Positions 40,484 through 64,000 of a DNA stretch of 64,000 nucleotides are shown here, in pieces; position 1 is the first letter of the stretch; the number at the start of each line of letters is the position of its first letter. The position numbers were made by a program, and so were the translations under genes. Below the pieces are notes generated by a model. It did no database searches, was not told the DNA's origin, and saw nothing but the letters and a program-made list of their open reading frames with translations. The stretch comes from Christensenella sp. UBA7862 (lineage in GTDB: Bacteria > Bacillota > Clostridia > Christensenellales > UBA1242): NCBI GenBank assembly GCA_002500135.1, contig DLSM01000006.1:185488-249487 (forward strand), written 5' to 3'.

Positions 40484-40489
40484 AATGTT

Positions 40490-40518
40490 AGTTTATCACA
40501 GACAAAGGAGGTTGTCAA
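40490..40518 (-). promoter_or_regulatory. tracrRNA promoter
   Basis: On the minus strand: TTGACA (40518-40513), 17 nt, then TAAACT (40495-40490). The predicted TSS near 40483 is immediately 5' of the anti-repeat. The -35 lies between the cas9 SD and its ATG on the opposite strand. Confidence 0.6.
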
Positions 40519-40523
40519 CTAAA

Positions 40524-43500: not shown

Positions 43501-44789
43501 CCAATCAAGAATCAAAAGCAGTCATAGACCTTTTAAGAAAAGTTGTTGATAATCCAACAGATATTATTTTCTCAAAGGCAAATGCTGTAAGTGATTTTAG
43601 AAAAAAATACGAAATATATAAATCAAGAGAAGTAAACTCTTTGCACCATGCAAAAGACGCTTATCTTAATGTAGTCGTGGGGAATGTTATATATAACAGA
43701 TTTACAGCAAGATTTTGGGATAGAAGAGATAATGATAAAAATTCAAGAGAACATGTAACAAGAAATTATACTAAATTATTCGAAGGAAATGTTTGGTCAT
43801 GCAGAGGAGATAATCTTGTATGGAACAAGGATAGAGATCTTACTAGAGTTAAAGCTCAATGCGAACAAAATAACTGTATAGTATCTGTGATGCCATATGT
43901 AAACAGCAATGGAAAATTCTACAATGATACAGTTTATAAGAGTAAGAAAAAAGACCCAAATACAAGTGCAAGTTTTGCTTTGAAAGGTGAAGGAAAACTT
44001 TTGAGTGATATAGAAAAGTATGGTGGCTACAACAGCCTTAGCGGAGCATACTTCATGGTTGTCGAAAGTGAAGGGAAAAATGGGAAAATAAAGAAAACTA
44101 TTGAAACTGTGCCTATCATAATTGAATATAAATATAGAAATGACCCAGACAAGCAAGAAAAAATAATAAAATACCTTGAGGAACAGAATAACATAAAAAT
44201 CACAAAAGTCATTATGTCTGTCCTTAAATACAAATCAACTCTTAATATAGGTGGCGGACTTTATACATTGACGGGAAAGACCAACAATTCGCTTATGATT
44301 TCAAATCAAATTCAATGGCACATTAACAATAAAAATACAGCATATGTTAAAACTCTCGAAAAATATCTCTCAATGTCTGACTCAACCAAGGAGAAACTTG
44401 CAAAAGCTGATGACTACATTGTTGTTTCCCCAGGCATCAAAGATAAAACTCAAGAGGTTAGAATTACAAGACAGGAGAATATTGAGCTATATGACCTTGT
44501 CATTAGACAACTTAAGAAAAAAATATATAACATAAGTTCCATCAAAGGAGTGCTGAATACTTTGGAAAATTCAAGGAGAAAATTTAATCTTTTGAATTTA
44601 GACGAACAAGTAAAGCAGTTAAACAATATTATCCGGTATCTTGGCGGGAGTTATTCAGTCGATTTGATTCTTCTTGGCGGAGTTGGGCGAGCGGGGGCAA
44701 CGACAATAGGTAAAAACATCACTGACCTAGATGTAAAGGTGATTGTTCAATCGGCATCAGGATTAAAAAGAAAGGAAATAAAGTTATAA
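40524..44789 (+). CDS. cas9: Type II-A Cas9 (1,421 aa)
   Basis: RuvC-I is LGLDIGTDSCGWAL. The Arg-rich bridge helix is RRTKRTARRRLQRK. HNH is YNVDHIIPQSKIKDDSLNNKVLV. RuvC-III is LHHAKDAYLNVVVG. The start is taken at ATG 40524, 12 nt after AAGGAGG. The ORF-track start at 40461 would translate the anti-repeat. Confidence 0.97.
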   Translation: MDKVDKNFYLGLDIGTDSCGWALTDEDYNVVRVKGKKAWGVRLFDDAEVAKERRTKRTARRRLQRKILQAEWLREIFSNEVEKTDPKFFDRLKYSNLFREDKELMGINSKYSLFNDVLKQVYTDKEYYAKYRTVYHLREELLEKPADDIRLLYLAVHSFLTHRGHFLYETAEADKIDITAMYNDVLSKLNELEFENGQIFSLSEVEEKVFTDLLENFKEGLSLREIKENFSNNIGAKNKREKDLAKIIISGKFKLKDLFEVDKEDNIDVDFSSEKYEQETYGKISEILGDDEKLAIVDKFQNIYSSIQLKKLLGEHKYISQAMVAKYELHNKQLKEFKNFISKYYPSKKSYIFRNAGNGDKLVVNNYAHYVYQTLTGGKKQVMQKRAAKDNFYSFVKKILEQEPEIPVDQNFEEYKEYVISLMDKGEFLQKIRSHDNTVLPNSLYMSELKKILEVSFQKFDFLKTIDETGLSGKEKILQIISFRVPYFVGPIGDSKPEFSWAERKEDMSLRPWNLSKIIDLNKAEDGFIQRMTNKCTYLKDKDVLPKDSILYSKFRVLNELNNLKIDGNSISVAVKQSIFNNLFKKEKKVSTKKLLNFLAAENVISADDIKNVSITGIDKEFANNYASFVTFSNRFGEEFVEKNIDIFEKIIKYHTIISDKSRLQERIKREFDIFTDDDIKWLKSLNFSKWGRLSREFLEEILFADRRKQEDLTVKENFSDRYVEKLDNGEVYSVIEALWETNNNLQQLFDRTNYTLGDMIEQTEQKLGRDLTYLDVDEMYCSPAVKRGAWQAIKIINEIKSAIGKYPDKIFVEVTRHDSVKGEKGRKDSRKRNLEKLYNDSKLKEMCKQFSLEYNTLINELNKSDVSNLRSDKLFLYFLQLGKCMYTGEPIEIADLYDDNKYNVDHIIPQSKIKDDSLNNKVLVKMIANKEKDNYYPISDIKPEWQIRQKHFWHMLKDRGLLSAEKLSRLERTEPFNEREEIDFVNRQLVETNQESKAVIDLLRKVVDNPTDIIFSKANAVSDFRKKYEIYKSREVNSLHHAKDAYLNVVVGNVIYNRFTARFWDRRDNDKNSREHVTRNYTKLFEGNVWSCRGDNLVWNKDRDLTRVKAQCEQNNCIVSVMPYVNSNGKFYNDTVYKSKKKDPNTSASFALKGEGKLLSDIEKYGGYNSLSGAYFMVVESEGKNGKIKKTIETVPIIIEYKYRNDPDKQEKIIKYLEEQNNIKITKVIMSVLKYKSTLNIGGGLYTLTGKTNNSLMISNQIQWHINNKNTAYVKTLEKYLSMSDSTKEKLAKADDYIVVSPGIKDKTQEVRITRQENIELYDLVIRQLKKKIYNISSIKGVLNTLENSRRKFNLLNLDEQVKQLNNIIRYLGGSYSVDLILLGGVGRAGATTIGKNITDLDVKVIVQSASGLKRKEIKL

Positions 44790-45649
44790 TGAGTTTTAGA
44801 ACAGTTGTTATAAAAAACCGCTCAAAACTTGACTTAAATTTAAACTATCTCGTGTGCAGAAGTGAGGACGAGAAAAAGGTTTATATTCCAGAAATATCAG
44901 TCCTAATTTTGGAATCAACTGCAATTTCGCTCACGACTGCACTCATAAGCGAACTTGTAAAGAACAATGTAAAAATAATCTTTTGTGACGAAAAGCACAA
45001 TCCAGAAAGTGAGTTAGCCCCATATTATGGGGCTCATAACTCACCCAGTGTTGTGTCAAGGCAGATTAACTGGAATGTCTTTAATAAACAGAAGATTTGG
45101 ACAAGCATTGTGAAAAGCAAAATTTCAAAACAACGCAATTTTCTTATGATTCTTGGATATGATGAGGAAGCAAATATGCTTGATGAATATATAAACGAAT
45201 TGCAACTCAATGACAGCACAAATAGGGAAGGACATGCTGCAAAAGTATATTTTAATGCTGTATGGGGTATGGATTTCTCTCGCCGTGTTGAAGGTTATGT
45301 AAACAGTGCATTAAATTATGGATATGCAGTCTTGTTGTCTTGCTTTAATAGAGCAATTGTGGCAAAGGGCTATCTTACTCAACTTGGAATTTGGCATAAA
45401 AATGAATTCAATGAGTTTAACCTCGCTTGCGACCTTATGGAGCCGTTTAGAATTTTAATTGATAAAATGGTTTGTCTTCTGGAGCCAAGTGCAAAAGATT
45501 ATAAAAGAAAGATTTTAGAGATTTTTGATTTGAAACTAAAAATCGATGGAAAGGAACAGTTCTTTGAAAATGCAATTTCAATTTATGTGCAATCAGTTTT
45601 TGATGCAATAGAAAGTGGAGATGAAAGACTAATTAAAATGTATGAGTAA
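44789..45649 (+). CDS. cas1: CRISPR-associated integrase Cas1 (II-A type, 286 aa)
   Basis: Its position, size and start overlapping the cas9 stop (TAATG) support the call. So does the C-terminal alpha-helical region with NYGYAVLLSCF...GIWH...FNLACDLMEPFR. Confidence 0.93.
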   Translation: MSFRTVVIKNRSKLDLNLNYLVCRSEDEKKVYIPEISVLILESTAISLTTALISELVKNNVKIIFCDEKHNPESELAPYYGAHNSPSVVSRQINWNVFNKQKIWTSIVKSKISKQRNFLMILGYDEEANMLDEYINELQLNDSTNREGHAAKVYFNAVWGMDFSRRVEGYVNSALNYGYAVLLSCFNRAIVAKGYLTQLGIWHKNEFNEFNLACDLMEPFRILIDKMVCLLEPSAKDYKRKILEIFDLKLKIDGKEQFFENAISIYVQSVFDAIESGDERLIKMYE

Positions 45650-45962
45650 CAGATTTATGAGAATTATGATTTTTTTTGATTTGCCAACCCTTACGGCAAA
45701 AGACCTTGTTGACTATAGAAGATTTAGAAAATTTTTAATAAAAAATGGATTTATTATGATGCAAGAATCCATTTATTCTAGGCTTGTCATAAACAGAAAC
45801 TCTCTTTCATTGGTCAAAAAGAAAGTAAAAGATAATTTACCTTCAAGCGGAAATGTTCAACTTCTGGAGGTGACGGAAAAACAGTTTGCAAGCATTGAAT
45901 ATTTGCGCGGGAAATCTCAGAAGAAAATTGTGGATAGCGAAGATAGGGTGGTGGAATTATGA
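45642..45962 (+). CDS. cas2: Cas2 (106 aa)
   Basis: MRIMIFFDLPT...ESIYSRLV ferredoxin-like Cas2 pattern. It overlaps cas1 by 8 nt. Confidence 0.9.
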   Translation: MSNRFMRIMIFFDLPTLTAKDLVDYRRFRKFLIKNGFIMMQESIYSRLVINRNSLSLVKKKVKDNLPSSGNVQLLEVTEKQFASIEYLRGKSQKKIVDSEDRVVEL

Positions 45963-46624
45963 AACTTATCAATAACCGATATTCCTTTAAAATGGATTTT
46001 GATATAACAAATAACTATCTTTTTGTCATAGAAAATGCAAAAGAATATAGAAGAGTATGCTTTGAATTGTTTGACGAGTTCAATGGGGTACAAAATAGTG
46101 ATTTTGTCCTTTCTGAAAATGCAAATATTTTGGCGATGACAAAAAACATGCTGTTATTCTGCGATTATTTCTCTCTTGATATAAATAATAAAAAAAATAT
46201 AAACGAAATAAATAACAGAATTCAAGAGCAACTTCAGACTTATGATTTCGCAGAAAAAATGTGCCAGATAAACAAACTCATTTTGGAAATAAACGATGAA
46301 ATTTTAGATAACTTTGATTTTAAAATTACATATGACGAAGAGTTTGGAACAGATAAACTTATAAAAATCTCTAACTATAGAATTTCTGAATCAAATGACT
46401 TTTTAGAGAAAATAATCGCGTATATAAAGATTTACTCAAGCTTAAAGCCCATAAAATTTGTTATTTTTATAGGGCTGATGCAATTTTTAACAAAAGACGA
46501 AATCCAAACTCTTGCCAAAAATATTGAGTATCTTGGACTTGGGCTTTTGCTTGTCGAAAGAAATGATTGTAAACTGGAAAATTTCAAAAGAATTCTCATT
46601 GACAACGACCTTTGTGAAATTTGA
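45959..46624 (+). CDS. csn2: Csn2 (short, about 220-aa family), the type II-A signature
   Basis: An ATGA overlap with cas2, a length of 221 aa, and its position as the last cas gene before the leader support the call. The sequence is very AT-rich and Lys/Asn/Ile-rich, as in Csn2 family 1. Confidence 0.8.
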   Translation: MKLINNRYSFKMDFDITNNYLFVIENAKEYRRVCFELFDEFNGVQNSDFVLSENANILAMTKNMLLFCDYFSLDINNKKNINEINNRIQEQLQTYDFAEKMCQINKLILEINDEILDNFDFKITYDEEFGTDKLIKISNYRISESNDFLEKIIAYIKIYSSLKPIKFVIFIGLMQFLTKDEIQTLAKNIEYLGLGLLLVERNDCKLENFKRILIDNDLCEI

Positions 46625-46729
46625 TGATTATATTAGTTGCAAAAGATGAAAGACCGTGATATAATAAAATTATCAATAACTTATTGACAAAATAAAATGT
46701 TGATAGCATAAATAATTCTTTAATTTGAG
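46625..46729 (+). promoter_or_regulatory. CRISPR leader with a pre-crRNA promoter
   Basis: TTGCAA (46637-46642), 17 nt, then TATAAT (46660-46665). A second candidate is TTGACA (46684-46689), 18 nt, then ATAAAT. The leader ends in ATTTGAG directly abutting repeat 1. Confidence 0.7.
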
Positions 46730-47689
46730 GTTTGAGAGTTATGTTATTTTGTCTATAAGTAAAACAAAAATGAATTTTTATATGCAGAATATTATGTTTG
46801 AGAGTTATGTTATTTTGTCTATAAGTAAAACAACACGAAAAGCAACCCCGCCAGCAACTGCGTTTGAGAGTTATGTTATTTTGTCTATAAGTAAAACGGG
46901 ACGGCAACCCGCTTGTAGCAGCTCCATGTTTGAGAGTTATGTTATTTTGTCTATAAGTAAAACCGCCAATAAGTTATATATATATAACTTAACGTTTGAG
47001 AGTTATGTTATTTTGTCTATAAGTAAAACCGATTGAGTTATCAAAACTTTATAACTCAAGTTTGAGAGTTATGTTATTTTGTCTATAAGTAAAACTTAGC
47101 GTGTTACAAAAACGACACGACCGCCGTTTGAGAGTTATGTTATTTTGTCTATAAGTAAAACTCTATATTAAAGATAAAGACTATAAAATGTGTTTGAGAG
47201 TTATGTTATTTTGTCTATAAGTAAAACCATCACATTAACGCAGGATGACTTACAACTGTTTGAGAGTTATGTTATTTTGTCTATAAGTAAAACCAAGATG
47301 TTGAGAGAAAAGAAAAGCAAAACGTTTGAGAGTTATGTTATTTTGTCTATAAGTAAAACATATAACTATTTTTTGTCGTTATTTTGTCAGTTTGAGAGTT
47401 ATGTTATTTTGTCTATAAGTAAAACTTTAAAACAATGAGCAATATTGCTATCTATGTTTGAGAGTTATGTTATTTTGTCTATAAGTAAAACAAGGTGACC
47501 CTTCGGCAGGGTCTTCGGTGTGTTTGAGAGTTATGTTATTTTGTCTATAAGTAAAACTGAGGGAATAAAATATGGAACTCTTTTGTAGTTTGAGAGTTAT
47601 GTTATTTTGTCTATAAGTAAAACTGAAGAGTTATTATTATTTATTAAAGCAAGGTTTGAGAGTTATGTTATTTTGTCTATAAGTAAAAC
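46730..47689 (+). CRISPR. Type II-A CRISPR array: 15 repeats x 36 nt and 14 spacers x 30 nt
   Basis: The repeat is GTTTGAGAGTTATGTTATTTTGTCTATAAGTAAAAC, at 46730 + 66n (n = 0-14). All 15 copies are identical, including the terminal one. Every spacer is exactly 30 nt. Confidence 0.99.
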
Positions 47690-47856: not shown

Positions 47857-48684
47857 ATGAAGAGATGCATGGGAAGAATAATGGACAAGAGAAAGTACAG
47901 AGGGCTGTGTGCGGCGAAGCGGGTGAGGACTCAGTTTATGTTTGCTGACTATGACACCATGACTGACGTGCAAGCCGTCACGCTTATGCTTTCTTTTGTG
48001 ACACCATGCAATGATTGCAGCGAAATTGCTGAAAGGTTGATAGCAAAATTTGGCTCATTGGCGAAGGTTCTTGAAGCGGATAAAGAAGAATTGAAAACTG
48101 TGAATGGCACCAGCAGCCATGTTGCAGAATTCATTAAATTTTGTTCCAGTTTGCCAGAGTTATATGCTGAATGTGACGACCGAAGACGAATAGTGTTTGA
48201 CAGCATAACAGCAGCTGTCGACTATGCCAGTGACATTCTCAACCTTGAGGAAGAGGGCTATTATTATTTCTGCTTAAACGCAAAAAATGAACTTTTGTAT
48301 TTCAATTCCATGGGAGATTTTCCAATTGGGAAAATGTTCACAACGAATAGGGAAATGTTTAAACAAATATTAAAATTCCCAACCAAAAACGTCCTCATTT
48401 GCCATGTGCTCCCTAAAGGTGAACCAAAACCAAAAACATGGGAAATTAGATTTACAAGAGAACTGAGAGATTTGCTCGCAACAGTCAGAATAGGACTAAC
48501 CGACCACATCATCATAACAAAAGATAAGCACTTCAGCTTCTACAGAATAGGGCTATTAAAACCCGATTGCCCGAAATCTCTTGATGACGAGTTCTTTGAC
48601 ATAAACGCCGAACTATTTGGTGACGATCTCCGCTGCCAAGCCTACAGCGAAAAACGAAACAAAAAGAAGAAAAAGGTGATGTGA
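47857..48684 (+). CDS. RadC-like (UPF0758) protein with a degenerate JAB/JAMM motif (275 aa; start uncertain at 47857, 47869 or 47881)
   Basis: The N-terminal HhH-type segment is IAERLIAKFGSLAKVLEADKEELKTVNG. In the C-terminal JAB region, VLICHVLPKGEPKPKTWEIRFTRELRDLLATVRIGLTDHIIIT, the canonical HNHPSG...S..D is replaced by CHVLPKG...KTWE. TTGCAG-17-TATAAT (47821-47849) ends only 7 nt before the first ATG. Confidence 0.7.
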   Translation: MKRCMGRIMDKRKYRGLCAAKRVRTQFMFADYDTMTDVQAVTLMLSFVTPCNDCSEIAERLIAKFGSLAKVLEADKEELKTVNGTSSHVAEFIKFCSSLPELYAECDDRRRIVFDSITAAVDYASDILNLEEEGYYYFCLNAKNELLYFNSMGDFPIGKMFTTNREMFKQILKFPTKNVLICHVLPKGEPKPKTWEIRFTRELRDLLATVRIGLTDHIIITKDKHFSFYRIGLLKPDCPKSLDDEFFDINAELFGDDLRCQAYSEKRNKKKKKVM

Positions 48685-53779: not shown

Positions 53780-54385
53780 TTAAGCAGTAAACTTTTTTCG
53801 TTCTAAACTTAGATATTTAAAGAAAGTCGAAATGGGCATATTAGCCATTTTTGCGGCAATGCTACAAGTTATTTCCTTGGCTAGATATAGTTTCAAAACA
53901 TCATAGAAATTGTCAGGTAAAACCAATTTTGGTCGCCCCATGTGAACACCTTTTTCCTTGGCAATTCGTATGCCTTCTGCTTGCCTTGACTTAATATTTT
54001 CTCTTTCAGTTTCAGCAACGAAAGAAAGGATTTGCAACACAATATCAGCAATAAATCTACCAACTAAATTTTGTGGGGTAGAACGAGTGTCTAAAAGTGG
54101 CATATCAATAACAAAAACATCGCACTCAACAATCTTAGTGATATAATACCATTCATCTAAAATCATTTTATAATTACGACCGAGGCGGTCTATTGATTTA
54201 ATAATCAGTAGGTCACCCTTTTTTATTTTAGCCCTTAAAATTTGATAATTTTCACGATTAAAATCCTTGCCACTTTGCTTATCAATAAAAACATTCTCAT
54301 TTGGAATTTTTAGCCTTGCCATTTCTTCAGTTTGTCTTTCAATATTTTGTGTGGTTGATGAAACACGCACATATCCATAAATCAT
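53780..54385 (-). CDS. Small serine recombinase (resolvase/invertase family, Hin/Gin/Pin-like; 201 aa)
   Basis: MIYGYVRVSSTTQNIERQ contains the catalytic Ser. Also present are GDLLIIKSIDRLGRN, ERENIKSRQAEGI and a C-terminal HTH (CSIAAKMANMPISTFFKYL). The start is taken at ATG 54385 after GGAGG. The ORF-track start at 54457 adds 24 atypical aa. Confidence 0.92.
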   Translation of the reverse strand: MIYGYVRVSSTTQNIERQTEEMARLKIPNENVFIDKQSGKDFNRENYQILRAKIKKGDLLIIKSIDRLGRNYKMILDEWYYITKIVECDVFVIDMPLLDTRSTPQNLVGRFIADIVLQILSFVAETERENIKSRQAEGIRIAKEKGVHMGRPKLVLPDNFYDVLKLYLAKEITCSIAAKMANMPISTFFKYLSLERKKFTA

Positions 54386-54434: not shown

Positions 54435-54460
54435 TACTGACAAAGAGATCTATACAAAAA

Positions 54461-54476
54461 TACACGTTGGTGTAGT
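54461..54476. repeat. Left arm of a 16-bp perfect inverted repeat (candidate recombinase crossover site)
   Basis: TACACGTTGGTGTAGT. It contains the internal dyad TACAC-GTTG-GTGTA. Confidence 0.9.
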
Positions 54477-54528
54477 AATTTAATCCAAACGATTTATTAG
54501 GTGTAGTATATCATATTTCTTCAAAAAA

Positions 54529-54557
54529 TGGACATAATTTTACTAATTTTTTAATAT
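54529..54557 (+). promoter_or_regulatory. Promoter-like element inside the IR-bracketed segment, currently facing the helicase operon
   Basis: TGGACA (54529-54534), 17 nt, then TAATAT (54552-54557). The segment is AT-rich, so other weaker matches exist, for example minus-strand TTGCAT-17-TAAAAA. Confidence 0.45.
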
Positions 54558-54606
54558 TTTTTGCATTTTCATGCAATTCTGCTTCTCAAAGCCTTTTTTT
54601 AGCTTA

Positions 54607-54622
54607 ACTACACCAACGTGTA
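54607..54622. repeat. Right arm of the 16-bp perfect inverted repeat
   Basis: ACTACACCAACGTGTA is the exact reverse complement of 54461-54476. It lies 76 nt upstream of the helicase ATG. Confidence 0.9.
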
Positions 54623-54697
54623 CCTTTAAGTAGTAAAAAACTTAATAATCTGAACTTGATTTTGATAATGTTTGTATTCAACAGAAGAGAGGAAAGG

Positions 54698-57600
54698 ATG
54701 ATGTTTGAAAATATAGATAACAGGATAAGGTTCCTTGGAGATGATCTAAAGAAGGAGTTAAAAGAGAACTCAAAAATTAGGATTGCAGCATCCTGTTTTT
54801 CTATGTATGCCTTTAAGGAACTGAAAGAAGAATTTAAAAAGATTGACGAGTTAAAATTTCTATTCACTTCGCCCACATTTACAAAAGAAAAAATTGTGGA
54901 AGATATGAAAAGTGAAAAAAGAGAATTCTATATACCTAAATTAAATAGAGAAAATTGCCTGTATGGAACAGATTTTGAAATAAGGCTTCGCAATGAAATG
55001 ACTCTTAAAGCGGTGGCAAGGGAATGTGCTGAATGGGTAAAAGAGAAGGTTAGATTTAAAAGTAACATAACTGAGTCCTACATTCCAAATTTTATAGGAA
55101 TAGAAAAATCTCAACAACCAAGTATAGTTTACAATCCAATAGATGGCTTTACAGCAAGCGACTTGGGGTATCAACAAGGGAGGGCTATATTTTCAGCCAC
55201 AATGAAGACTGACTTTGCCGAGCAGAGTAAATTTTTATTATCCATGTTTGACGAAGTTTGGAACGACAAGTCAAGGGTTGAAGATATAACAGATTCAGTT
55301 ATTGAAATGATTAGTTCTGCGTATCAAGAAAACAGCCCAGAATTTATTTATTACATAGTTCTATACAATGTTTTTGCCGATTTTCTTGATGAAATCAGTG
55401 ACGATCATATGCCAAATGAAGCAACTGGGTTCAAGAATACAAAAATTTGGAACACCTTGTATGACTTTCAGAAAAATGGCGCAATAAGCATAATTCAAAA
55501 ACTTGAAAAACATAACGGTTGCGTATTGGCAGATAGTGTTGGACTGGGTAAAACTTTTACTGCACTTGCAGTTATGGCGTATTATTCTTTGAGAAATAAA
55601 AGCATTTTGGTGTTATGTCCAAAAAGGCTTGGTCAAAATTGGATGCAATATTGTGGGAATGAAGTAACAAACATTTTTTATCAAGACAGAATTAGATACG
55701 ATGTCCTCTATCACACAGACCTAGGAAGATCTGGAATGTCTCATGACGGCAGAGACATTAAATATATTAACTGGGGAAATTATGATCTTGTAGTTTTAGA
55801 TGAATCTCATAACTTTAGGAACAACTATGCGGCGGAAGGTAAAGAATCTCGATACAACTTTCTTGTAAATAAAGTTTTAAGACCGGGGGTGAAAACCAAG
55901 ATTTTAATGCTTTCTGCAACACCAGTAAACAACAGATATGCTGACTTAAAAAACCAACTAGCACTTGCTTATGCACAAGATTATGATGCTTTTGAGGCGA
56001 GTTTGGACACAAAAAGTAGCATTGCTTCAATATTCAGAAATGCTCAATCTGTCTTTAATGAATGGTCAAGGAAGCCGATATACAAAAGAAAAACAATAGA
56101 CTTGGTGAACAATTTAAGCATGGATTTTAAAACGCTTCTTGACAGTGTGACAATAGCAAGAAGCAGAAAGAAGATTCTAAAGTATTATAAAGACAACAGT
56201 ATAGGTAACTTCCCAGAAAGACTGCCGCCTCAGTCATATTTCCCAGAACTAACCGAATTGCAAGGGGTATCATCTTACGAAGAAATCTATGAAAAAATCG
56301 CTTTGATGAATATGGCTGTTTATGGCGTTTTTGACTATGTCCTTGAAAGTAAAAAAGAAAAATATGAAATGAAAACTACTCTCGAAGAAAATTTTGGTGG
56401 AATATCCAGAGGTGGACGAACGGCAGGAATAAAGAGATTGATGACTATAAATCTGTTGAAAAGATTGGAATCGAGTGTAGAGGCTTTCAGTCTGACAATG
56501 GACAAAATTCTTAAACAGAATTTAGCAGAACTAGATAGATTGCAACAATACGAAGATGGATTGCTTGACCCCGATGCTACAATAGATAAAAAAGTTTTTA
56601 GTTATGAAGCAATAGATATGGATGATGAAACATTTTCCTTTTTCAGAACGGATAAAGGAAGAACAATTTCTATTAAATATGCAGATGTAGATAGAAGATC
56701 GTGGAAAAGGGCAATGCAAGAGGATATAAATGAATTGACATTGCTTTTGAACGAGATGAACAAAATAACACCCGAGCATGACAACAAATTGCAAACATTA
56801 AAGGATGTTATAAAAGATAAAATTCAAAATCCAATAAACCCAGGCAATCATAAAGTTTTAATTTTTTCAGCTTTCGCCGATACCGCAAATTATCTTTATG
56901 ACAATTTAAAGAATTGCCTAAAAGAGAATTATGGAATAGAGTCCGCTTTAATAGTAGGACAAAAGAATAGAACTACCATTAGCGATTGCTCAAACAGAAC
57001 AGATGCCTTGCTAACTATGTTCAGCCCAATAAGCAAAAATAGAGATGAGACTTTTAATAGGATTGAATGTCATGGCAAGTCCACTGAGATAGATATCCTC
57101 ATAGCCACAGATTGCATTTCAGAAGGTCAAAACTTGCAAGATTGTGATATGTGCTTAAATTACGACATCCATTGGAACCCTGTTAGGATAGTCCAACGTT
57201 ATGGACGTGTGGACAGATTGGGGAGCAAAAATGAAAAAATAAGGCTTATAAATTTCTGGCCACCAATATCACTTAACGAATACCTTAATCTTACAGAAAG
57301 AGTAAGTAGCAGAATGACAATAGTCAACCAAACTGCAACTGCTGATGACAATATTCTTGACCCAGATGAACAGCTTGATGATTATAGAGAAATTCAAATT
57401 AAAAAACTTCAAGAAGGTGAAAATATAGACCTAGATGACCAAGAAACTGGTGTTTCAATTTCAGATTTGGGGCTAAACGACTTCCGAATGGATATGTCGG
57501 AATTGCTTAAAACATATGGCAAATCAAAACAACTTCCAAAAGGTCTTCATTGTGTTGTCCCAGCAGATGAAAAGAATGGAATTGCTCCAGGGGTTATTTA

Positions 57601-58006
57601 TGTTTTGAAAAACCAAAATCAAAATCTCAGTTTAGTAAAGAGAAATAGATTGTATCCATATTTCTTGGTGTATGTGGACAAGTCTGGAAAGGTTATTGAG
57701 GACTACACTCAAGTCCATCAAATTTTGGAAATATTAAAACGGGCATGCTCTGGACGGAAAGAACCAATCGCTGAAGTTTACAAAAAGTTTAACCTAGAAA
57801 CAGATGACGGGAAGGACATGCATATATATTCTGGCTTACTTAAAGACGCAATTCAGTCAATGATCAGTGAGAAAAACACAAGCGATTTGCAATATTTGTT
57901 TAAATTCGGAAGTGAAGTTTTAAATGAAGTTGGAATTAAGGGGTTGGACGATTTTGAACTCATAACCTTTGTCGTAATCGAACAAAAGGAGGGGGAGAAT
58001 GTTTAA
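54698..58006 (+). CDS. SNF2-family helicase/translocase with unassigned N-terminal (about 270 aa) and C-terminal (about 230 aa) regions (about 1,102 aa)
   Basis: Helicase motifs: I LADSVGLGKTFTALAV; II DLVVLDESHNFRN; III LMLSATPVNN; V/VI ILIATDCISEGQNLQDCDMCLNYDIHWNPVRIVQRYGRVDRLGS. The start is ATG at 54698 or 54701, after GAGAGGAAAGG. Confidence 0.9.
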   Translation: MMFENIDNRIRFLGDDLKKELKENSKIRIAASCFSMYAFKELKEEFKKIDELKFLFTSPTFTKEKIVEDMKSEKREFYIPKLNRENCLYGTDFEIRLRNEMTLKAVARECAEWVKEKVRFKSNITESYIPNFIGIEKSQQPSIVYNPIDGFTASDLGYQQGRAIFSATMKTDFAEQSKFLLSMFDEVWNDKSRVEDITDSVIEMISSAYQENSPEFIYYIVLYNVFADFLDEISDDHMPNEATGFKNTKIWNTLYDFQKNGAISIIQKLEKHNGCVLADSVGLGKTFTALAVMAYYSLRNKSILVLCPKRLGQNWMQYCGNEVTNIFYQDRIRYDVLYHTDLGRSGMSHDGRDIKYINWGNYDLVVLDESHNFRNNYAAEGKESRYNFLVNKVLRPGVKTKILMLSATPVNNRYADLKNQLALAYAQDYDAFEASLDTKSSIASIFRNAQSVFNEWSRKPIYKRKTIDLVNNLSMDFKTLLDSVTIARSRKKILKYYKDNSIGNFPERLPPQSYFPELTELQGVSSYEEIYEKIALMNMAVYGVFDYVLESKKEKYEMKTTLEENFGGISRGGRTAGIKRLMTINLLKRLESSVEAFSLTMDKILKQNLAELDRLQQYEDGLLDPDATIDKKVFSYEAIDMDDETFSFFRTDKGRTISIKYADVDRRSWKRAMQEDINELTLLLNEMNKITPEHDNKLQTLKDVIKDKIQNPINPGNHKVLIFSAFADTANYLYDNLKNCLKENYGIESALIVGQKNRTTISDCSNRTDALLTMFSPISKNRDETFNRIECHGKSTEIDILIATDCISEGQNLQDCDMCLNYDIHWNPVRIVQRYGRVDRLGSKNEKIRLINFWPPISLNEYLNLTERVSSRMTIVNQTATADDNILDPDEQLDDYREIQIKKLQEGENIDLDDQETGVSISDLGLNDFRMDMSELLKTYGKSKQLPKGLHCVVPADEKNGIAPGVIYVLKNQNQNLSLVKRNRLYPYFLVYVDKSGKVIEDYTQVHQILEILKRACSGRKEPIAEVYKKFNLETDDGKDMHIYSGLLKDAIQSMISEKNTSDLQYLFKFGSEVLNEVGIKGLDDFELITFVVIEQKEGENV

Positions 58007-58631
58007 ATATAACGAAAGAACTGAAGTAAATTTAGACTTAAAACTAGCGGAACTATTCAAAGTAATCAAGGCGAATAAGCAAATTCAATCAGATGCAAGT
58101 ATAGTTTCAAAGGTAATATTAACAAACATATTGTCACCAGATAGAACGAACCTAGAACCAAGCGAAAATGTGAAAGAAATATACATAATGGACATTGTTC
58201 TTAACAAAGCAGCAGCCCCAACAAAGTTTATAGATGCACTGAATAAATACATAAACTTTCAAATACTTTTTAGATTGCGATATGAAGTAGAGGTCAAATA
58301 TATCACATCACTAAAAGCATTTACTGAAGATAAAACCAAGGTTTTGAAAACTTGCGAAAGTGATTGGCAAAAAGAAAATAAAGAGGAACTTCCAAGCACT
58401 AGTAAATTAGAAAATGTTTTCAAAGCAATGGTAAGTTACATCACGAAAATAAAGTTCAGACAAGATGAAACTTTTGATGAATACACAGACCGAACCAACC
58501 AAATAAAAAAACACAAAACAGAGATTGAGAAGCTAACAAAAACTCGTGATGCAGAAAAACAACCAAACACAAAAATGGCGATAAACAGCCAAATAAAAGA
58601 ACTCAAAAGAGAATTGGAGGAAATGTTATGA
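57999..58631 (+). CDS. DUF4391-like protein (210 aa)
   Basis: It overlaps the SNF2 stop by 8 nt. The pattern VKEIYIMDIVLNKAAAPTKFIDALNKYINFQILFRL, followed by a Lys/Glu-rich coiled-coil tail, matches my recollection of the DUF4391 (PF14335) family. That family is often found beside SNF2 helicase and methyltransferase genes. An HMM search is needed. Confidence 0.5.
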   Translation: MFKYNERTEVNLDLKLAELFKVIKANKQIQSDASIVSKVILTNILSPDRTNLEPSENVKEIYIMDIVLNKAAAPTKFIDALNKYINFQILFRLRYEVEVKYITSLKAFTEDKTKVLKTCESDWQKENKEELPSTSKLENVFKAMVSYITKIKFRQDETFDEYTDRTNQIKKHKTEIEKLTKTRDAEKQPNTKMAINSQIKELKRELEEML

Positions 58632-59122
58632 AAAAAGAAATGAATTTAGAGGAAAACAATGATTTGATATGTGAATTATCTTATATTAGTGATGATGAGA
58701 AAGATAATCTCAAATCATCAATCATAAAGTTTGTTTGTTATTTTAACTTATTTGAAAGTTATTTAAACGAAAGAGGCATAGATCATTGGTATGATTTTTT
58801 TGATAAATACACAGTTGATGAAAGTTTGATAAATAAATATTTTGAATTTTTCTATAAGAGATATGTAAAAGATGATGAAGTAAATGATCAATTTAATAGT
58901 TTTTATGGCGTTGTTAAAGAAAATTATCTAAATCAATTAAAAAATGATTTAATTCAAAAACAAAATAAACCTAAATCGGTGTTATCAATTTCTTATTATT
59001 TTAGGAACAATCTATTTCACGGACATAAAGCTATATGTCAGTTGAAAAAGTATGTTGCTTGTTTTGAAAAAATCACGGAATTTTTATTAAAAATAATGGA
59101 AAATGCAAAGGAGAAAAAATAA
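58628..59122 (+). CDS. Small all-alpha protein with an Rx4H motif: putative HEPN-domain protein (164 aa)
   Basis: It has an ATGA overlap with the upstream gene and a TAATG overlap with mod. SISYYFRNNLFHGHKA contains R-N-x3-H, with the polar residue after Arg typical of HEPN RNase motifs. The size suits a minimal HEPN domain. It is the most AT-rich gene of the operon. Confidence 0.4.
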   Translation: MKKEMNLEENNDLICELSYISDDEKDNLKSSIIKFVCYFNLFESYLNERGIDHWYDFFDKYTVDESLINKYFEFFYKRYVKDDEVNDQFNSFYGVVKENYLNQLKNDLIQKQNKPKSVLSISYYFRNNLFHGHKAICQLKKYVACFEKITEFLLKIMENAKEKK

Positions 59123-60981
59123 TGGATAAATTACAAATGCGAAGTAAAAATTTGGTGGATGAAAATATTAGTAAAATTGCAGAGTTATTCCCTAACTGTA
59201 TTACTGAGGGAAAAGATGAAAATGGACAAGTTGTTAAACTTGTTGATTTTGACTTGCTTAAACAAGAATTGTCGAAAGAAATTGTTGAGGGTAATGATGA
59301 AAGATATACACTTAATTGGGCAGGTAAAAAACAAGCAATTTTAACTGCAAATTCACCTATCAATGCAACACTACGCCCTTGCAGAGAAGAAAGTGTTGAT
59401 TTTGATAGCACAAAAAACCTTTACATTGAGGGAGACAACCTTGACGTCCTTAAACTTCTGCGTGAAACTTACTTGAACAAAGTTAAAATGATTTATATTG
59501 ACCCACCTTACAATACTGGTAATGATTTTGTGTATGAAGATGATTTTGCTAGTAGTACTGAAGATTATTTGCAAGCAAGTAAGAGTTATGATGATCAAGG
59601 CAATAGAATGTTCCAAAACAACGATTCAAATGGTAGATTTCATTCTGATTGGCTTTCAATGATGTATTCAAGACTGAAATTAGCAAAAGATTTATTAACT
59701 GATGATGGTGTAATTTTTATTTCTATTGATGACAATGAACAAGAGAATTTAAAGAAAATTTGTAATGAAATATTTGGTGAATTAAATTTTATTGGCACAC
59801 ATATACGAAAAACAGTATCCCAAAGAGCAATGGCAAAAAATTATAATACACAACACGAATATTGCTTAATCTATACTAAAAATAATAATAATTTTGATTT
59901 ATGTGGCGACGAAAAAAACTTTAATGTTTACAGTAATCCAGATAATGATCCACGAGGAGATTGGAAAACATCTGATCCCACTATGAGTGGATCTAAAAAT
60001 AATTTCGAGATTATCAATCCATATAACGGAAAAATAGATTTTCCACCAAAAGGAAGAGGTTGGGCTTTTACTAAAGAAAAATTTGATTGTTTAGTAGATG
60101 AAGGGATAGTTATTTTCAAGAAAGATTGCAAGGAATCGGAAAGAGGTTTTATTTACAAAGCTTATAAAAAAGATTTAAGAAGTCAGAATTTGCTTTTAAA
60201 TTCTCTAGACGTTTGCGAAAATCAATATATGAATCAAGTTTCGACAAAAGAAATGATAGAATTATTTGATGAACGAATGTTTGACTATGCCAAACCAGTT
60301 TCATTTGTAAGGAAAATATTAAGTTATGATAAAAATAAAGAATCAATTATATTAGATTTTTTCTCGGGCTCAGCAACAACTGCTCAAGCGGTCATGCAAT
60401 TGAATGTTGAAGATGGCGAAAATAGAAAATACATAATGGTTCAACTTCCTGAAATAACTGACGAAAACAGTGAAGCATATAAAGCTGGGTATAAGACAAT
60501 TTGTGAAATAGGCAAAGAAAGAATTCGTAGAGCAGGGAAAAATATAAAGGATGAAAATCCTGGCAAAAAAATTGATGTTGGTTTCCGTGTATTTAAACTT
60601 GACAGTAGTTGTATGAAAGACATTTATTATTCTCCAAATAAAACGACACAAGATTTGCTCACTCAATTTGAAGATAACATCAAAGAAGATAGAACCCCAG
60701 AAGATTTGTTATTCCAAGTAATGCTTGATATGGGTGTTATGCTTTCAAGTGAAATAAAGACCTTAGAGATCAATGGCAAAAAAGTATTCAATGTAAACGA
60801 TGGCGACCTAGTTTGCTGTTTTGATAAAGACCTTAACGATGATGTCGTTACAGCAATAGCAAAAATGCAACCATTGTATGCCGTATTTAGAGATGCAAGT
60901 ATGTCAACTGACAGTGTAGCAGTAAACTTTGACCAAATTTTTGAGACATATTCGCCAACTACAACAAGGAAAATAATATAG
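59122..60981 (+). CDS. mod: Type III-style N6-adenine DNA methyltransferase (Mod; beta-class, N6_N4_Mtase) (619 aa)
   Basis: Motif IV, MIYIDPPYNTGNDFVYEDDF, precedes motif I, LDFFSGSATTAQAV. A variable middle (TRD) region separates them. The N-terminus ERYTLNWAGKKQA is typical of Mod proteins. Confidence 0.88.
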   Translation: MDKLQMRSKNLVDENISKIAELFPNCITEGKDENGQVVKLVDFDLLKQELSKEIVEGNDERYTLNWAGKKQAILTANSPINATLRPCREESVDFDSTKNLYIEGDNLDVLKLLRETYLNKVKMIYIDPPYNTGNDFVYEDDFASSTEDYLQASKSYDDQGNRMFQNNDSNGRFHSDWLSMMYSRLKLAKDLLTDDGVIFISIDDNEQENLKKICNEIFGELNFIGTHIRKTVSQRAMAKNYNTQHEYCLIYTKNNNNFDLCGDEKNFNVYSNPDNDPRGDWKTSDPTMSGSKNNFEIINPYNGKIDFPPKGRGWAFTKEKFDCLVDEGIVIFKKDCKESERGFIYKAYKKDLRSQNLLLNSLDVCENQYMNQVSTKEMIELFDERMFDYAKPVSFVRKILSYDKNKESIILDFFSGSATTAQAVMQLNVEDGENRKYIMVQLPEITDENSEAYKAGYKTICEIGKERIRRAGKNIKDENPGKKIDVGFRVFKLDSSCMKDIYYSPNKTTQDLLTQFEDNIKEDRTPEDLLFQVMLDMGVMLSSEIKTLEINGKKVFNVNDGDLVCCFDKDLNDDVVTAIAKMQPLYAVFRDASMSTDSVAVNFDQIFETYSPTTTRKII

Positions 60982-61108
60982 GATTAGTGTTACTAAAGAT
61001 ATAAATTTATTGAATAATTTAAACATTTATGACCAAATAAAAATTTCAAACCTATAGTAAAACTTGATTTTAAAATAAATTGTCAAAATCTTAAAAAAGG
61101 AGAAATAA

Positions 61109-61873
61109 ATGACAAACAAAGTTAAAGAAATAAAGTATTTTTGTGCTAAATGTTATCAAGATTACACACAAGATATTAGTATTTGTCCGTTTTGTAAGAA
61201 TAGATTAATTAAAAAAGAAATTTATTGGGATTTAGAAGCACATGGATATTTTATAAAAATTTCAAGTTTGATTGCTTTAAAAAATATGAGAAAAGGTGCA
61301 ATATGGTTCAGACCACCTGTTTATTTTAATAGATATGAACAAGATGATGTCATTGGAGACAGCCAAGAGTTTTTAGTTCAAGTTGATCCAGATGATAAAA
61401 AGTTTGATCCTAATATAAACAAGAAATTAATATTTTGTATGTACTTTTTGACAACAGATAAAAATGGTAATTATTCTATTCCAGAGCAAGATAAAGATAA
61501 TTTGCAAAAATTTGGTAATTCAGTTTCTTTTATTAGTTTTGCAAAGTTCAAAAAATTAATTGAAAAGTATGTTATTAGAGAGGCTAATAAAATAGTTGGT
61601 AACCATGTTTCTTATTATACAGATAAGATGTGTGGGGCTATTAACCCATTCTTTAAAAGAATAAAATATAACTATCAAAACGAGTATAGATTTATTTTAG
61701 AAGATGAAAGGTTTCTTAGTCTATATAACGAAGATGGTTCATTAAAGGAAGACAAATTTGTTTATAAACATAGAAGAAATCTAAAAAAAGTTTTTAGCAA
61801 GCCAATCGATTTAGAAATTATTCTTAATAGCCAAAACGAAAAGGATTGGGATCATTTGATTAAGATGTATTAA
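61109..61873 (+). CDS. Zinc-ribbon protein with a DUF2971-like body (254 aa), inserted between mod and res
   Basis: It has its own RBS, AAAGGAG. YFCAKCYQDYTQDISICPFCKNRL is a CxxC-x12-CxxC ribbon. GAIWFRPPVYFNRYEQDDVIGDSQE and YQNEYRFIL resemble the DUF2971 signatures from memory. The gene is very AT-rich. Confidence 0.4.
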   Translation: MTNKVKEIKYFCAKCYQDYTQDISICPFCKNRLIKKEIYWDLEAHGYFIKISSLIALKNMRKGAIWFRPPVYFNRYEQDDVIGDSQEFLVQVDPDDKKFDPNINKKLIFCMYFLTTDKNGNYSIPEQDKDNLQKFGNSVSFISFAKFKKLIEKYVIREANKIVGNHVSYYTDKMCGAINPFFKRIKYNYQNEYRFILEDERFLSLYNEDGSLKEDKFVYKHRRNLKKVFSKPIDLEIILNSQNEKDWDHLIKMY

Positions 61874-61884
61874 GGAGAACACAA

Positions 61885-64000
61885 ATGAAATTTAGATTTA
61901 AGACACAGTCGTATCAGCAAGATGCTGTAATAAATATTTGCAAGGTATTTAAAGGGCAGCCAAAGTTGGATATGATTAGATACACAAGAGATTTGGGTAT
62001 TAGGAGAAAGGAGACTGGAAAGCCTCAATTTGGAATGTTTGACGCCTATGAAGAAAATGATGATGGTTTCGAAAATGCTAAAATACTGCTTGATGAAACT
62101 GACATTTTGCAAAACATAAAGCATATTCAACAAGATTGCAACTACAAAGAGTCAGAAGAATTGGTTAAAGGTCTTGGCAAATGTTCGCTTGACATTGAAA
62201 TGGAAACAGGCACAGGCAAAACATATGTATATATCAACACCATTTTTGATTTGAACGAAAGATATGGTTGGAGTAAATTCATAGTTGTTGTTCCTAGCAT
62301 TGCTATTCGTGAAGGTGTTAAAAAGTCATTCCAGATGATGGAAGATCACTTCATGGATCGTTATCACAAAAAGGCAAGATATTTTGTTTACAACAGCAAA
62401 AGGCTTAGTGAATTAGATAGTTTTGCTTCATCTAGTGATATCAATGTAATGATCATTAACACGCAAGCATTCAATGCTCGTGGCACTGATGCCAGAAGAA
62501 TTGATATGGTTCTTGATGAATTTCAATCAAGAAAACCAATTGATGTTGTAGCAAAAACAAGACCAATACTGATCCTTGATGAACCACAAAAGATGGGCGA
62601 TGAAAAGAGTGCAACACAACTTTCACTTCGCAAATTTAATCCACTATTTTGTATGAACTTCTCAGCAACACACAAAAAGCAACACAACCTTGTATATTGC
62701 TTGGATGCAGTGGATGCATACAATAAATGCTTGGTTAAAAAGATTCAAGTCAAGGGCTTTGAGATTAAGAATTTGCGTGGAACAGATAAATACTTGTATT
62801 TGCAAGACATCGTGCTTTCACCAAACAAACCACCAATGTGTAAGTTAGAGTTTGAAATAAACTATAACAAGTCAATCAATAGAGAGACAAGAATCCTTGG
62901 CAAAGGCGACAACTTGTATCACAAGTCTAACCAAATGGAACAATACAAGAACGATTATATAATCTCAGACATCAATCCATTTAACAACACAATCACTTTC
63001 CTAAATGGACAAGTATTGCACATTGGCGAAGTGCTAGGGGATGTTTCAGATAAAGACCTTAGAAGAATACAAATAAGAGAAACAATTCGTTCACACTTTG
63101 AAAAAGAAGAGAAGCTTTACGATAAAGGAATTAAATGCTTGTCATTGTTCTTCATTGATGAGGTTGTAAAGTATAGAGATTACAACGAGCCAGATGAAAA
63201 AGGCGAATATGCAAGAATGTTTGAAGAAGAGTACACAAAGGCACTCAACGAAAAGATAACACTATTCGAAACACCTTACATTCGCTACTTGAAAGGCATT
63301 GATGTTAAAGACACACACAAAGGTTATTTCTCAATAGATAAAAAGACCGGAAGAATGATCGATTCAAAGGAAAGCAAAGGCGAAGGCTCAGATGATATTT
63401 CAGCATACGACCTTATTTTGAAAAACAAAGAGAGATTGCTTTCAAAGGAAGAACCAACAAGATTCATATTCTCACACTCAGCACTTCGTGAAGGTTGGGA
63501 TAACCCTAACATCTTCCAAATTTGTGCATTGAAACCCGGTGGCGACAGTGCAATTGCAAAGCGACAAGAGGTCGGTCGTGGACTTCGTATTGCTGTAAAT
63601 ATGATAGGGGATAGAACAGACCTTCACTATTTCAAGAATGAGAGATCATCATTCCATAATGTCAACACTTTAACAGTTATTGCAACTGACAGTTATAAAG
63701 ACTTTGTTGGTTCAATACAAAAAGTGCTTAAAGAAAACCTTGCAGACAGACCTACAAGGGCAACAATTGAATATTTCCGTGGCAAGTTCGTTAGCGATGG
63801 AAAAGAGAGAATTCAGGTCAACAACGATATGGCAAGTGATATTCAAAGTTATTTGAGATTTAACGGTTATGCCGATAAAGATAACAAAATCACTCAAAAA
63901 TACTTTGATGACAAGGCAAACAACACGCTTGCCGCAATGCCAGAAATCCTTGCGCCATACACAGAAAGTGTGCATAAACTTGTTGAAAGCATTTACAATG
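61885..64000 (+). CDS. res: Type III restriction endonuclease Res subunit (helicase part; 3' end beyond the window)
   Basis: This ORF is not in the supplied track because it has no stop inside the window. I translated it by hand from ATG 61885 (RBS AAGGAG) and found no stop to nt 64000 (705 codons). Motifs: DIEMETGTGKTYVY (I), ILILDEPQKM (II), NFSATH (III), ALREGWDNPNIFQICALK and QEVGRGLRIAV (VI). The C-terminal nuclease domain is not in the window. Confidence 0.88.
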   Translation, partial: MKFRFKTQSYQQDAVINICKVFKGQPKLDMIRYTRDLGIRRKETGKPQFGMFDAYEENDDGFENAKILLDETDILQNIKHIQQDCNYKESEELVKGLGKCSLDIEMETGTGKTYVYINTIFDLNERYGWSKFIVVVPSIAIREGVKKSFQMMEDHFMDRYHKKARYFVYNSKRLSELDSFASSSDINVMIINTQAFNARGTDARRIDMVLDEFQSRKPIDVVAKTRPILILDEPQKMGDEKSATQLSLRKFNPLFCMNFSATHKKQHNLVYCLDAVDAYNKCLVKKIQVKGFEIKNLRGTDKYLYLQDIVLSPNKPPMCKLEFEINYNKSINRETRILGKGDNLYHKSNQMEQYKNDYIISDINPFNNTITFLNGQVLHIGEVLGDVSDKDLRRIQIRETIRSHFEKEEKLYDKGIKCLSLFFIDEVVKYRDYNEPDEKGEYARMFEEEYTKALNEKITLFETPYIRYLKGIDVKDTHKGYFSIDKKTGRMIDSKESKGEGSDDISAYDLILKNKERLLSKEEPTRFIFSHSALREGWDNPNIFQICALKPGGDSAIAKRQEVGRGLRIAVNMIGDRTDLHYFKNERSSFHNVNTLTVIATDSYKDFVGSIQKVLKENLADRPTRATIEYFRGKFVSDGKERIQVNNDMASDIQSYLRFNGYADKDNKITQKYFDDKANNTLAAMPEILAPYTESVHKLVESIYN

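Follow-up and report, generated by a model that had tools for sequence, protein, structure and literature searches.

A probable type III-like restriction-modification operon of Christensenella sp. UBA7862 with a conserved SNF2-DUF4391 pair, two cargo slots and an upstream invertible element

Six open reading frames (ORFs) were found between 54 and 64 kb of a 64,000-nucleotide (nt) stretch of Christensenella sp. UBA7862 (contig DLSM01000006.1, forward-strand positions 185,488 to 249,487), which is called the window below. The ORF listing and the translations showed that all six run in the same direction on the plus strand. They encode, in this order, a SNF2-family ATPase, a DUF4391 protein, ORF3, the methyltransferase Mod, ORF5 and Res. 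We consider it fairly probable that these genes form one operon, a four-component relative of type III restriction-modification (R-M) systems that contains cargo slots and is under a phase-variable switch. What is new here is that a type III-like R-M system is combined with an inverton, cargo slots and a further, putative ATPase module. No functional account of DUF4391 or of the four-gene module was found in the literature searched. The term 'PF14335' was not found there either. The term 'DUF4391' occurred in two papers, neither of them functional, and in one of these it was a typographical error for DUF7941.

The gene for the SNF2-family ATPase (54698-58006, 1102 amino acids) lies in an ORF that is open from 54656. 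It is followed by the gene for the DUF4391 protein (57999-58631, 210 amino acids), a conserved small partner of the SNF2 protein, and by ORF3 (58628-59122, 164 amino acids), a predicted all-alpha, plausibly HEPN-like protein with an RNNxxH motif that occupies the first cargo slot. The type III-like N6-adenine methyltransferase Mod (619 amino acids) is encoded at 59122-60981. The extra gene that an earlier reading made from the letters alone (the sequence-only reading) had placed between mod and res was found there as ORF5 (61109-61873, 254 amino acids), the cargo of the second slot, with a zinc ribbon and an uncharacterised domain. Res, a type III-like superfamily 2 (SF2) ATPase, starts at 61885 and is open at the window end (64000), with 705 codons inside the window. 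The junctions were read directly from the sequence. SNF2 and DUF4391 overlap by 8 nt (ATGTTTAA) with AGGAGG upstream, DUF4391 and ORF3 share an ATGA with GGAGG upstream, and ORF3 and mod are joined by TAATG with AAGGAG upstream. ORF5 and res are separated by 11 nt, again with AAGGAG upstream, and a GGAGG-type ribosome-binding site precedes each start codon of the operon. Some gene callers start ORF3 at Met5 (160 amino acids), and therefore the ATGA overlap is likely rather than certain. The gap between mod and ORF5 is 127 nt, and no terminator was predicted there by a terminator scan. The chain of overlapping stop and start codons that the sequence-only reading described for the first four genes was thus found at each of its junctions, and its view of one translationally coupled unit agreed with the shared direction, the overlaps and the ribosome-binding sites. 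The island was also more AT-rich than the surface-protein genes, as that reading had said, with a G+C content of 0.29-0.36 across 54-64 kb versus 0.39-0.45 in the first 40 kb. Between 40 and 48 kb, the CRISPR-Cas block was as AT-rich as the R-M island.

Hidden Markov model and PADLOC searches, which the sequence-only reading had proposed, confirmed the identities of four of the six genes, SNF2, DUF4391, mod and res. The SNF2 protein matched SNF2-rel_dom (PF00176; 5e-12, 46 bits, cut-off 24.9) and Helicase_C (PF00271; 4e-14, 53 bits). Its Walker A (GLGKT) and DESH motifs were intact and conserved, which placed it in the SNF2 ATPase family. The best match was the PADLOC model 'HKD+Snf2' C3a139 (2.5e-104, full length), whose label goes back to a survey of the gene neighbourhoods of type III CRISPR loci. 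Sequence matches in the PDB were confined to the ATPase lobes (SNF2, STH1, CHD1L and RapA). In addition to these lobes, the protein has a C-terminal extension of about 200 amino acids and an N-terminal domain of about 240 amino acids. The N-terminal domain was strongly conserved between Firmicute and proteobacterial versions and gave no Pfam family and no PDB sequence match in sequence and profile searches. A PLD/HKD nuclease was considered for this domain and rejected on sequence grounds, because HxK(x)4D was absent, a conserved xKFKSN was present instead, and no PLDc Pfam match was obtained at E ≤ 0.1. The 'HKD' label of C3a139 was not confirmed for the N-terminus at the level of sequence.

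The DUF4391 protein scored 80.9 bits against PF14335 (1.7e-22; cut-off 29.9) and is therefore a member of this family, for which a profile search gave 948 representative clusters at E ≤ 1e-3. No model in PADLOC-DB 2.0.0 recognised it. Its AlphaFold2 model was confident (pLDDT, the predicted local distance difference test, 95.5) and showed an alpha/beta domain, behind which a long helical hairpin forms the C-terminus. Foldseek searches of the PDB and BFVD with this model gave no match at E ≤ 1e-3. An assignment as a PD-(D/E)xK nuclease was unsupported, since the confident model had no nuclease-like fold match.

Mod and Res both had the features of type III enzymes. Mod matched PADLOC MTase_III (1.5e-232) and Pfam N6_N4_Mtase (PF01555; 7e-32), and its translation carried DPPY and FSGSATT, in line with the DPPY and FxGxG motifs of a type III Mod. 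The central target-recognition region was variable, and DNA homology to relatives was lost there, from about 59800 to 60280/60590. Res matched PADLOC REase_III (6.5e-211), Pfam ResIII (1.5e-15) and NCBIfam PRK15483 (6e-83). It reached 279 bits against the NCBIfam type III equivalog cut-off of 564, partly because the window end truncates it. In a contig of the same species (L039), Res was 1031 amino acids long with a C-terminal RE_endonuc domain (PF19778), which was also found in relatives. The SF2 ATPase and C-terminal PD-(D/E)xK endonuclease of a type III Res were thus present, with the endonuclease part located beyond the window end. The pair resembled EcoP1I and EcoP15I in its PF01555 Mod matching MTase_III, in its Res with ResIII/SF2 and RE_endonuc parts, and in having mod before res. 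It differed from them in three respects. The window Res was only about 32% identical to the P1-type Res, a conserved SNF2-DUF4391 pair precedes mod here, and cargo slots interrupt the operon.

The arrangement was conserved far beyond the window. Context sampling covered dozens of loci out of the whole DUF4391 family. Twenty-one related loci were retrieved from species-representative genomes via an alignment of DUF4391 relatives, and almost all of these carried a Christensenellales or Clostridia label or that of a related uncultured gut Firmicute. By tblastn, the order SNF2-DUF4391-...-Mod-...-Res was kept in all of them where the contig suffices, except in L017 (1-10566). This locus held DUF4391 and RhuM-type cargo followed by unrelated minus-strand genes, with no Mod or Res within 10 kb. 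DUF4391 was directly 3' of SNF2 in nearly all loci examined, with insertion sequence (IS) elements in between in a few. The same order was found on plasmids of Methylotuvimicrobium, Raoultella, Aeromonas, Citrobacter and Photobacterium, and the Sphingobium copy was IS-disrupted. Plasmid copies often had a WYL or helix-turn-helix regulator upstream. Of 5,426 complete E. coli genomes, 54 carried the enterobacterial version on the chromosome. The sequence-only reading had given this co-occurrence for Firmicute genomes; the system is not confined to them and was also found in Proteobacteria.

The prevalence of the SNF2-DUF4391 pair was judged from Res, because a plasmid tblastn with the window DUF4391 under-detected the family (8 records, versus 278 with Res). 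Among the 15 Res-first plasmid loci of at least 34% identity, 13 carried SNF2-DUF4391, one carried a DUF4391 remnant and one carried neither. The most similar Res (60.7%) was that of Clostridium taeniosporum, in which Mod-Res is preceded by a DUF4391 remnant just upstream of mod, without SNF2. Between 45.9 and 54% identity, the full four-gene module was present in Aeromonas, Raoultella, Citrobacter, Acinetobacter, Photobacterium, Methylotuvimicrobium, Lactococcus, Enterococcus and Listeria and on a plasmid of E. coli with additional genes for phage-type replication, and some of these copies were IS-disrupted. These loci were followed by Chryseobacterium (38.8%), with only Mod, a PDDEXK cargo and Res, by Latilactobacillus (37.8%) with the full module, by plasmid pJ1_1 of Bacillus cereus (36.1%) with drmA-drmB-SNF2-DUF4391-methyltransferase-Res, and by Vibrio (34.2%) with the full module. 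The P1-type Res of E. coli (32.4%) was accompanied by a canonical mod-res only, without SNF2-DUF4391. Within type III Res, the proteins linked to SNF2-DUF4391 make up a clade of their own. Across 12 loci, SNF2, DUF4391 and Res co-varied in their identity to the window (Spearman 0.78-0.87). The co-conservation of SNF2 and DUF4391 with mod and res, which the sequence-only reading had made decisive, thus held in every phylum sampled, in the 21 loci, on plasmids and in the Res-first sample.

These data also bear on the explanation that two independent defence systems, SNF2-DUF4391 on the one hand and a standard type III R-M pair on the other, are merely adjacent in a defence island. In favour of this, canonical type III needs only Mod and Res, and the conservation of Res and SNF2 was strongly unequal. 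Mod-Res of this clade was found without SNF2 in Chryseobacterium and Clostridium taeniosporum, and L017 had DUF4391 with no Mod within 10 kb. However, order and strand were constant across Bacillota and Alpha-, Beta- and Gammaproteobacteria, the pair was present in 13 of the 15 Res-first samples, and translational coupling extends to mod. The DUF4391 remnant upstream of the C. taeniosporum mod argues for decay of a four-gene ancestor and not for independence. In addition, no complete locus examined had the SNF2-DUF4391 pair without an adjacent methyltransferase. We give the explanation by two separate systems little chance of being correct.

Two hypervariable slots were found in the operon, slot 1 between DUF4391 and mod and slot 2 between mod and res. 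The sequence-only reading had described a composite island of six genes. ORF3 and ORF5 are not fixed parts of it, and neither had a homologue in any of the 21 related loci by tblastn. Slot 1 held one to four other plus-strand genes in every related locus. Slot 2 held one or two genes in most of them, and mod and res were adjacent in L002 and L006. The slot proteins of the related loci fell into about 40 unrelated clusters, many of them without annotation. The Pfam families in slot 1 were SieB, RhuM, Bro-N, DUF2971, HEPN_Cthe2314, GHKL ATPase and small zinc-ribbon proteins. Those in slot 2 were Abi_C, HEPN_Apea, HEPN_AbiU2, DUF2971, DUF3800, DUF4238 and GHKL ATPase. The slots of the proteobacterial plasmids carried UvrD-like ATPases, an OLD-like endonuclease with DUF2130 and an AAA ATPase with DUF4276. 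In slot 1, DNA homology to relatives ended at the DUF4391 stop codon and returned at the mod ribosome-binding site. In slot 2, it ended at the mod stop codon and returned at the res ribosome-binding site. Since homology breaks at the gene boundaries, ORF3 and ORF5 are exchangeable cargo and not core genes. A similar insertion of variable defence genes between conserved genes of a methylation-associated operon is known for hmaABC (PMC11232893). The present operon shares this feature with the hmaABC hotspots. It differs from them in having two defined slots in a type III-like operon with boundaries at stop and start codons, and in that cargo of at least some families turns up in the corresponding slot of other such operons.

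Mod was duplicated in some loci. Tandem mod pairs on the same strand were seen at L001 11611-15956, L003 3946-8468 and L020 11453-15750, with a small coiled-coil/zinc-ribbon gene between the two mods; the same family is slot-1 cargo in other loci. Tandem DUF4391 genes (310 and 212 amino acids) were seen between SNF2 and an ORF3 homologue at L025 3395-4980 and L026 6103-7688.

Neither ORF3 nor ORF5 had a match in Pfam, PADLOC or NCBIfam. The ORF3 family comprised 14 clusters with an invariant LSISYYFRNN.(Y/F)HG motif. In the window protein, R126-N-N-L-F-H131 is an Rx4H, which falls within the Rx4-6H pattern of HEPN proteins, and the RNN..H residues were invariant in all 14 members. HEPN_DZIP3 gave subthreshold matches in five of the 14 members (best E 0.0039) and none in the window ORF3. 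The structure model was confident and all-alpha (pLDDT 85). Foldseek found no significant PDB match for the fold, and the best HEPN match was 2hsb at E = 3.1. The earlier label 'HEPN-like' was thus backed by the invariant RNNxxH and the subthreshold HEPN_DZIP3 matches, and it was not backed by a fold match; HEPN membership of ORF3 is plausible. In four of the six contexts examined, ORF3 homologues were directly upstream of mod in other SNF2-DUF4391 operons. In the other two they were outside any R-M locus, once beside a RhuM gene. At L028 (7100-8564), which is not an R-M locus, the ORF3-family gene and the end of a RhuM-family gene overlap, and the same RhuM family is slot-1 cargo in L011, L012 and L017.

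In the case of ORF5, an N-terminal CxxC...CxxC zinc ribbon was recognised, with weak zinc-ribbon profile matches. Only three relatives were found among 5.8 billion clusters. One of them (36% identity) was in the same slot between mod and res of another SNF2-DUF4391 operon. The sequence-only reading had called ORF5 'DUF2971-like', and this was not backed. All three family members were without a PF11185 match at E ≤ 10, and hhalign against true DUF2971 cargo gave E = 0.11 and 0.19, a likeness in motif order only (WF..D..EF; YQxEYR).

The links of DUF4391 to other methylation-based systems were also investigated. The plasmid pJ1_1 of Bacillus cereus (NZ_AP022922.1 230095-243837; L057 1-11970) carried a contiguous drmA-drmB(DUF1998)-SNF2-DUF4391-methyltransferase-Res block. 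The analogy with class 1 DISARM drawn in the sequence-only reading is therefore well founded, and its remark that the DISARM hallmarks are lacking was also correct, as no DrmA, DrmB or DrmC was found in the window region. Among the clusters of the profile search, DUF4391 was fused to PglZ, to an SNF2 N-lobe and to ASCH. The PglZ::DUF4391 protein (795 amino acids; L045 1940-9585) is encoded directly upstream of Mod-Res. Upstream of it were a bAvd-like gene and the 3' end of a gene that we tentatively take to be PglX-like from a conserved C-terminal motif. L045 is a possible BREX/type III hybrid. The fusions and the DrmAB-linked block together suggest that DUF4391 may couple a large partner enzyme to Mod-Res.

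The B. cereus block is also an argument for regarding the operon as a reduced or variant class 1 DISARM. In this reading SNF2 would correspond to DrmD and Mod to DrmMI, and the part of the helicase-nuclease effector would fall to Res instead of DrmABC. The SNF2 protein of pJ1_1 was 40% identical to that of the window over its full length. In addition, DrmD was the best-scoring named-system model for the window SNF2 (PADLOC 7e-34, NCBIfam 1.7e-41). However, the bit scores were far below the cut-offs (142.5 against 610 for NCBIfam DISARM_DrmD, 93.5 against 950 for DrmD_b). DrmA, DrmB (DUF1998) and DrmC were absent here, in the 21 Christensenellales loci and in the proteobacterial loci examined, and the B. 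cereus variant was the sole case in which DISARM core genes were seen. Published descriptions of class 1 are without a DUF4391 gene, and DrmMI is pfam13659 whereas this Mod is PF01555. We regard a variant DISARM as very unlikely. The operon resembles class 1 DISARM and ARMADA in combining a SNF2-type ATPase, an adenine methyltransferase and a helicase-nuclease, and in the DrmA-DrmB-linked version of the module in Bacillus cereus. It differs from them in having no YprA/DrmA helicase, DUF1998 or PLD gene. In the case of ARMADA, the methyltransferase is PglX-like, and DUF4391 is not mentioned in the ARMADA paper.

A working model can be proposed on the basis of the type III enzymes. In these enzymes, the target-recognition region of Mod, which is variable, reads a short asymmetric site, and Mod methylates one of the two strands. 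Res combines an SF2 ATPase with a PD-(D/E)xK nuclease; once Mod has loaded it, it cleaves DNA that lacks the modification. A hemimethylated asymmetric site and cleavage that depends on inverted site pairs are the hallmarks of this class. SNF2 and DUF4391 would form a second ATP-driven module. DUF4391 might be a non-catalytic adaptor that docks the large accessory enzyme onto Mod-Res, and the SNF2 motor might load or activate Mod on DNA, or clear or translocate on target DNA so that restriction can proceed. ORF3 and ORF5 would most likely be independent back-up effectors of the abortive type, co-expressed with the operon.

Such a module would have a parallel in MANTIS (formerly Gao_RL/Gao_29), in which a large ATPase, together with a small protein, loads and activates an N6-adenine methyltransferase. 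Asymmetric sites are hemimethylated there, and a helicase-nuclease restricts DNA with inverted unmodified sites (bioRxiv 10.64898/2026.09.23.753747). The MANTIS parts are MtsA, a DUF499 AAA+ protein, MtsB (DUF3870) and MtsD, a PLD-helicase, and DUF499 and DUF3870 are the only DUF families named in that paper (bioRxiv 10.64898/2026.09.23.753747). The four-part logic of a large ATPase, a small protein, an N6-adenine methyltransferase and a helicase-nuclease is the same, and SNF2-DUF4391 would correspond to MtsA with the small MtsB. In contrast, no part comes from the same family. Pfam and PADLOC searches of the six window proteins gave no score for a MANTIS PADLOC model and no MtsA, MtsB or MtsD domain, so that the operon falls outside MANTIS. 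MANTIS is the closest functional analogue, with a likeness in possible working and not in membership.

SNF2 enzymes remodel protein-DNA complexes, and the SNF2-DUF4391 pair could accordingly be read as a counter-counter-defence. It would strip phage anti-restriction proteins or roadblocks bound to DNA, or sense inhibition of Mod-Res, and would have no part in routine methylation or cleavage. The PDB matches of the SNF2 protein to chromatin remodellers and RapA fit this explanation, and abortive-type cargo in the operon fits a layered defence. However, no sensor or effector domain was identifiable in SNF2 or DUF4391, the SNF2 N-terminal domain was without PLD catalytic residues, and the data do not separate this explanation from the loader model. 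We consider a role restricted to counter-counter-defence unlikely.

An invertible element and a recombinase gene were found upstream of the operon, neither of which was in the account of the sequence-only reading. The gene for a small serine recombinase of the resolvase/invertase family is located at 53780-54385 on the minus strand (Pfam Resolvase 6.7e-25). Translation probably begins with MIYGYVRVSS at 54385, the ORF as called mechanically runs to 54457, and the gene is annotated with 201 amino acids in contigs of the same species. Orthologues (62-93% identity) were upstream of SNF2 in L001, L010, L016, L020 and L026. The invertible element spans 172 base pairs (bp; 54456-54627). Its arms (54456-54476 and 54607-54627) are 21 nt each and 90% complementary, and they enclose a 130-bp segment. 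The SNF2 start codon (54698) is about 70 nt past the right-hand repeat. In L001, the element was the exact reverse complement of that in the window and in the closely related genomes L020 and L016, with the inner parts of the repeats inverted as well, and both flanks were collinear. Inversion of the element thus occurs between two different genomes; the inverted state rests on one assembly. L010 and L026 had the same recombinase and equivalent repeats with a AAAGGTAC core. The structural features of an inverton were therefore present: inverted repeats, an adjacent recombinase and both orientations, the latter between two metagenome-assembled genomes (L001 versus L020). As in known invertons, a short inverted-repeat segment lies beside a small serine recombinase gene, and both orientations occur in nature. 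The difference is that a whole type III-like R-M operon lies downstream here and not surface structures or hsdS genes.

The element carried promoter-like sites on both strands, TGGACA-17-TAATAT on the plus strand and TGATATACT on the minus strand. An extended -10 motif, TGnTATA[A/C]T, faced the recombinase in the window, L020, L016, L010 and L026, and it faced SNF2 in L001. A weaker -35/-10 pair was located on the opposite strand to the extended -10. From these motifs, the sites on either strand may have promoter activity. The serine recombinase would flip the 172-bp element, and expression of the operon would thereby be phase-variable. In the case of mod itself, no simple-repeat tract that could give phase variation was found. 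Invertible mod segments were also rejected, because no long inverted repeats were found inside the operon and the duplicate mods of L001, L003 and L020 are on the same strand.

Several observations weigh against a single, switchable four-component operon. The adaptor and loader roles were derived from synteny, fusions and analogy, and the PglZ::DUF4391 fusion was found in a single metagenomic contig. Canonical type III enzymes need Mod and Res alone, and SNF2-DUF4391 may therefore be dispensable for restriction. Between the window and its closest relatives, the L001 group, amino acid identity was 97% for Res versus 70% for SNF2, and DNA identity to these relatives was 92% for res versus 73-77% for SNF2. 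The two halves of the operon therefore differ in rate or have recombined. The 127-nt gap before ORF5 contained a promoter-like site. With respect to ON/OFF control, the orientation of the window was found in all four other contigs of the window's species, and promoter-like sites were no commoner in the region than in shuffled sequence. On the other hand, the conserved synteny with SNF2-DUF4391 argues for components beyond Mod and Res in this clade, and the reading of one four-component operon with cargo slots and a switch remains the one that we prefer. A broader claim can be only tentative, and we think it rather doubtful: that this is a distinct, phylogenetically widespread class of defence system in which a type III-like methyltransferase and nuclease cannot do without SNF2 as ATP-driven motor and DUF4391 as adaptor, that DUF4391 also docks the module to DISARM (DrmAB) and BREX (PglZ), that the operon is a two-slot carrier of exchangeable abortive-infection genes, and that it is inverton-switched in gut Clostridia.

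Other features of the window lie further upstream. A type II-A CRISPR-Cas locus was found at 40461-47689, with cas9 (40461-44789), cas1 (44789-45649), csn2 (45959-46624) and an array (46730-47689) in which the 36-nt repeat GTTTGAGAGTTATGTTATTTTGTCTATAAGTAAAAC occurs about 15 times. A RadC-like gene is located at 47857-48684. Very large ORFs were present at 76-16392 (5438 amino acids), 16425-19787 (1120 amino acids) and 29065-36198 (2377 amino acids), and the large upstream ORFs were surface-protein genes according to the sequence-only reading. Near them, a collagen-repeat protein is encoded on the minus strand (36322-37464) and a DUF11 protein at 37614-38396.

If SNF2-DUF4391 is needed for methylation or restriction, the operon would join DISARM, ARMADA and MANTIS as a fourth 'dual-ATPase' design, and DUF4391, a family of about 950 representative clusters, would gain a function. 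Since the module occurs in E. coli, Listeria, Enterococcus, Lactococcus, Acinetobacter and gut Clostridia, it is testable in easy hosts, and it may affect the movement of plasmids and phages in strains of clinical and dairy origin. The cargo slots provide a catalogue of candidate anti-phage effectors, most of them unannotated. The DrmAB-linked and PglZ-fused variants suggest a route by which modules may be exchanged among methylation-based systems.

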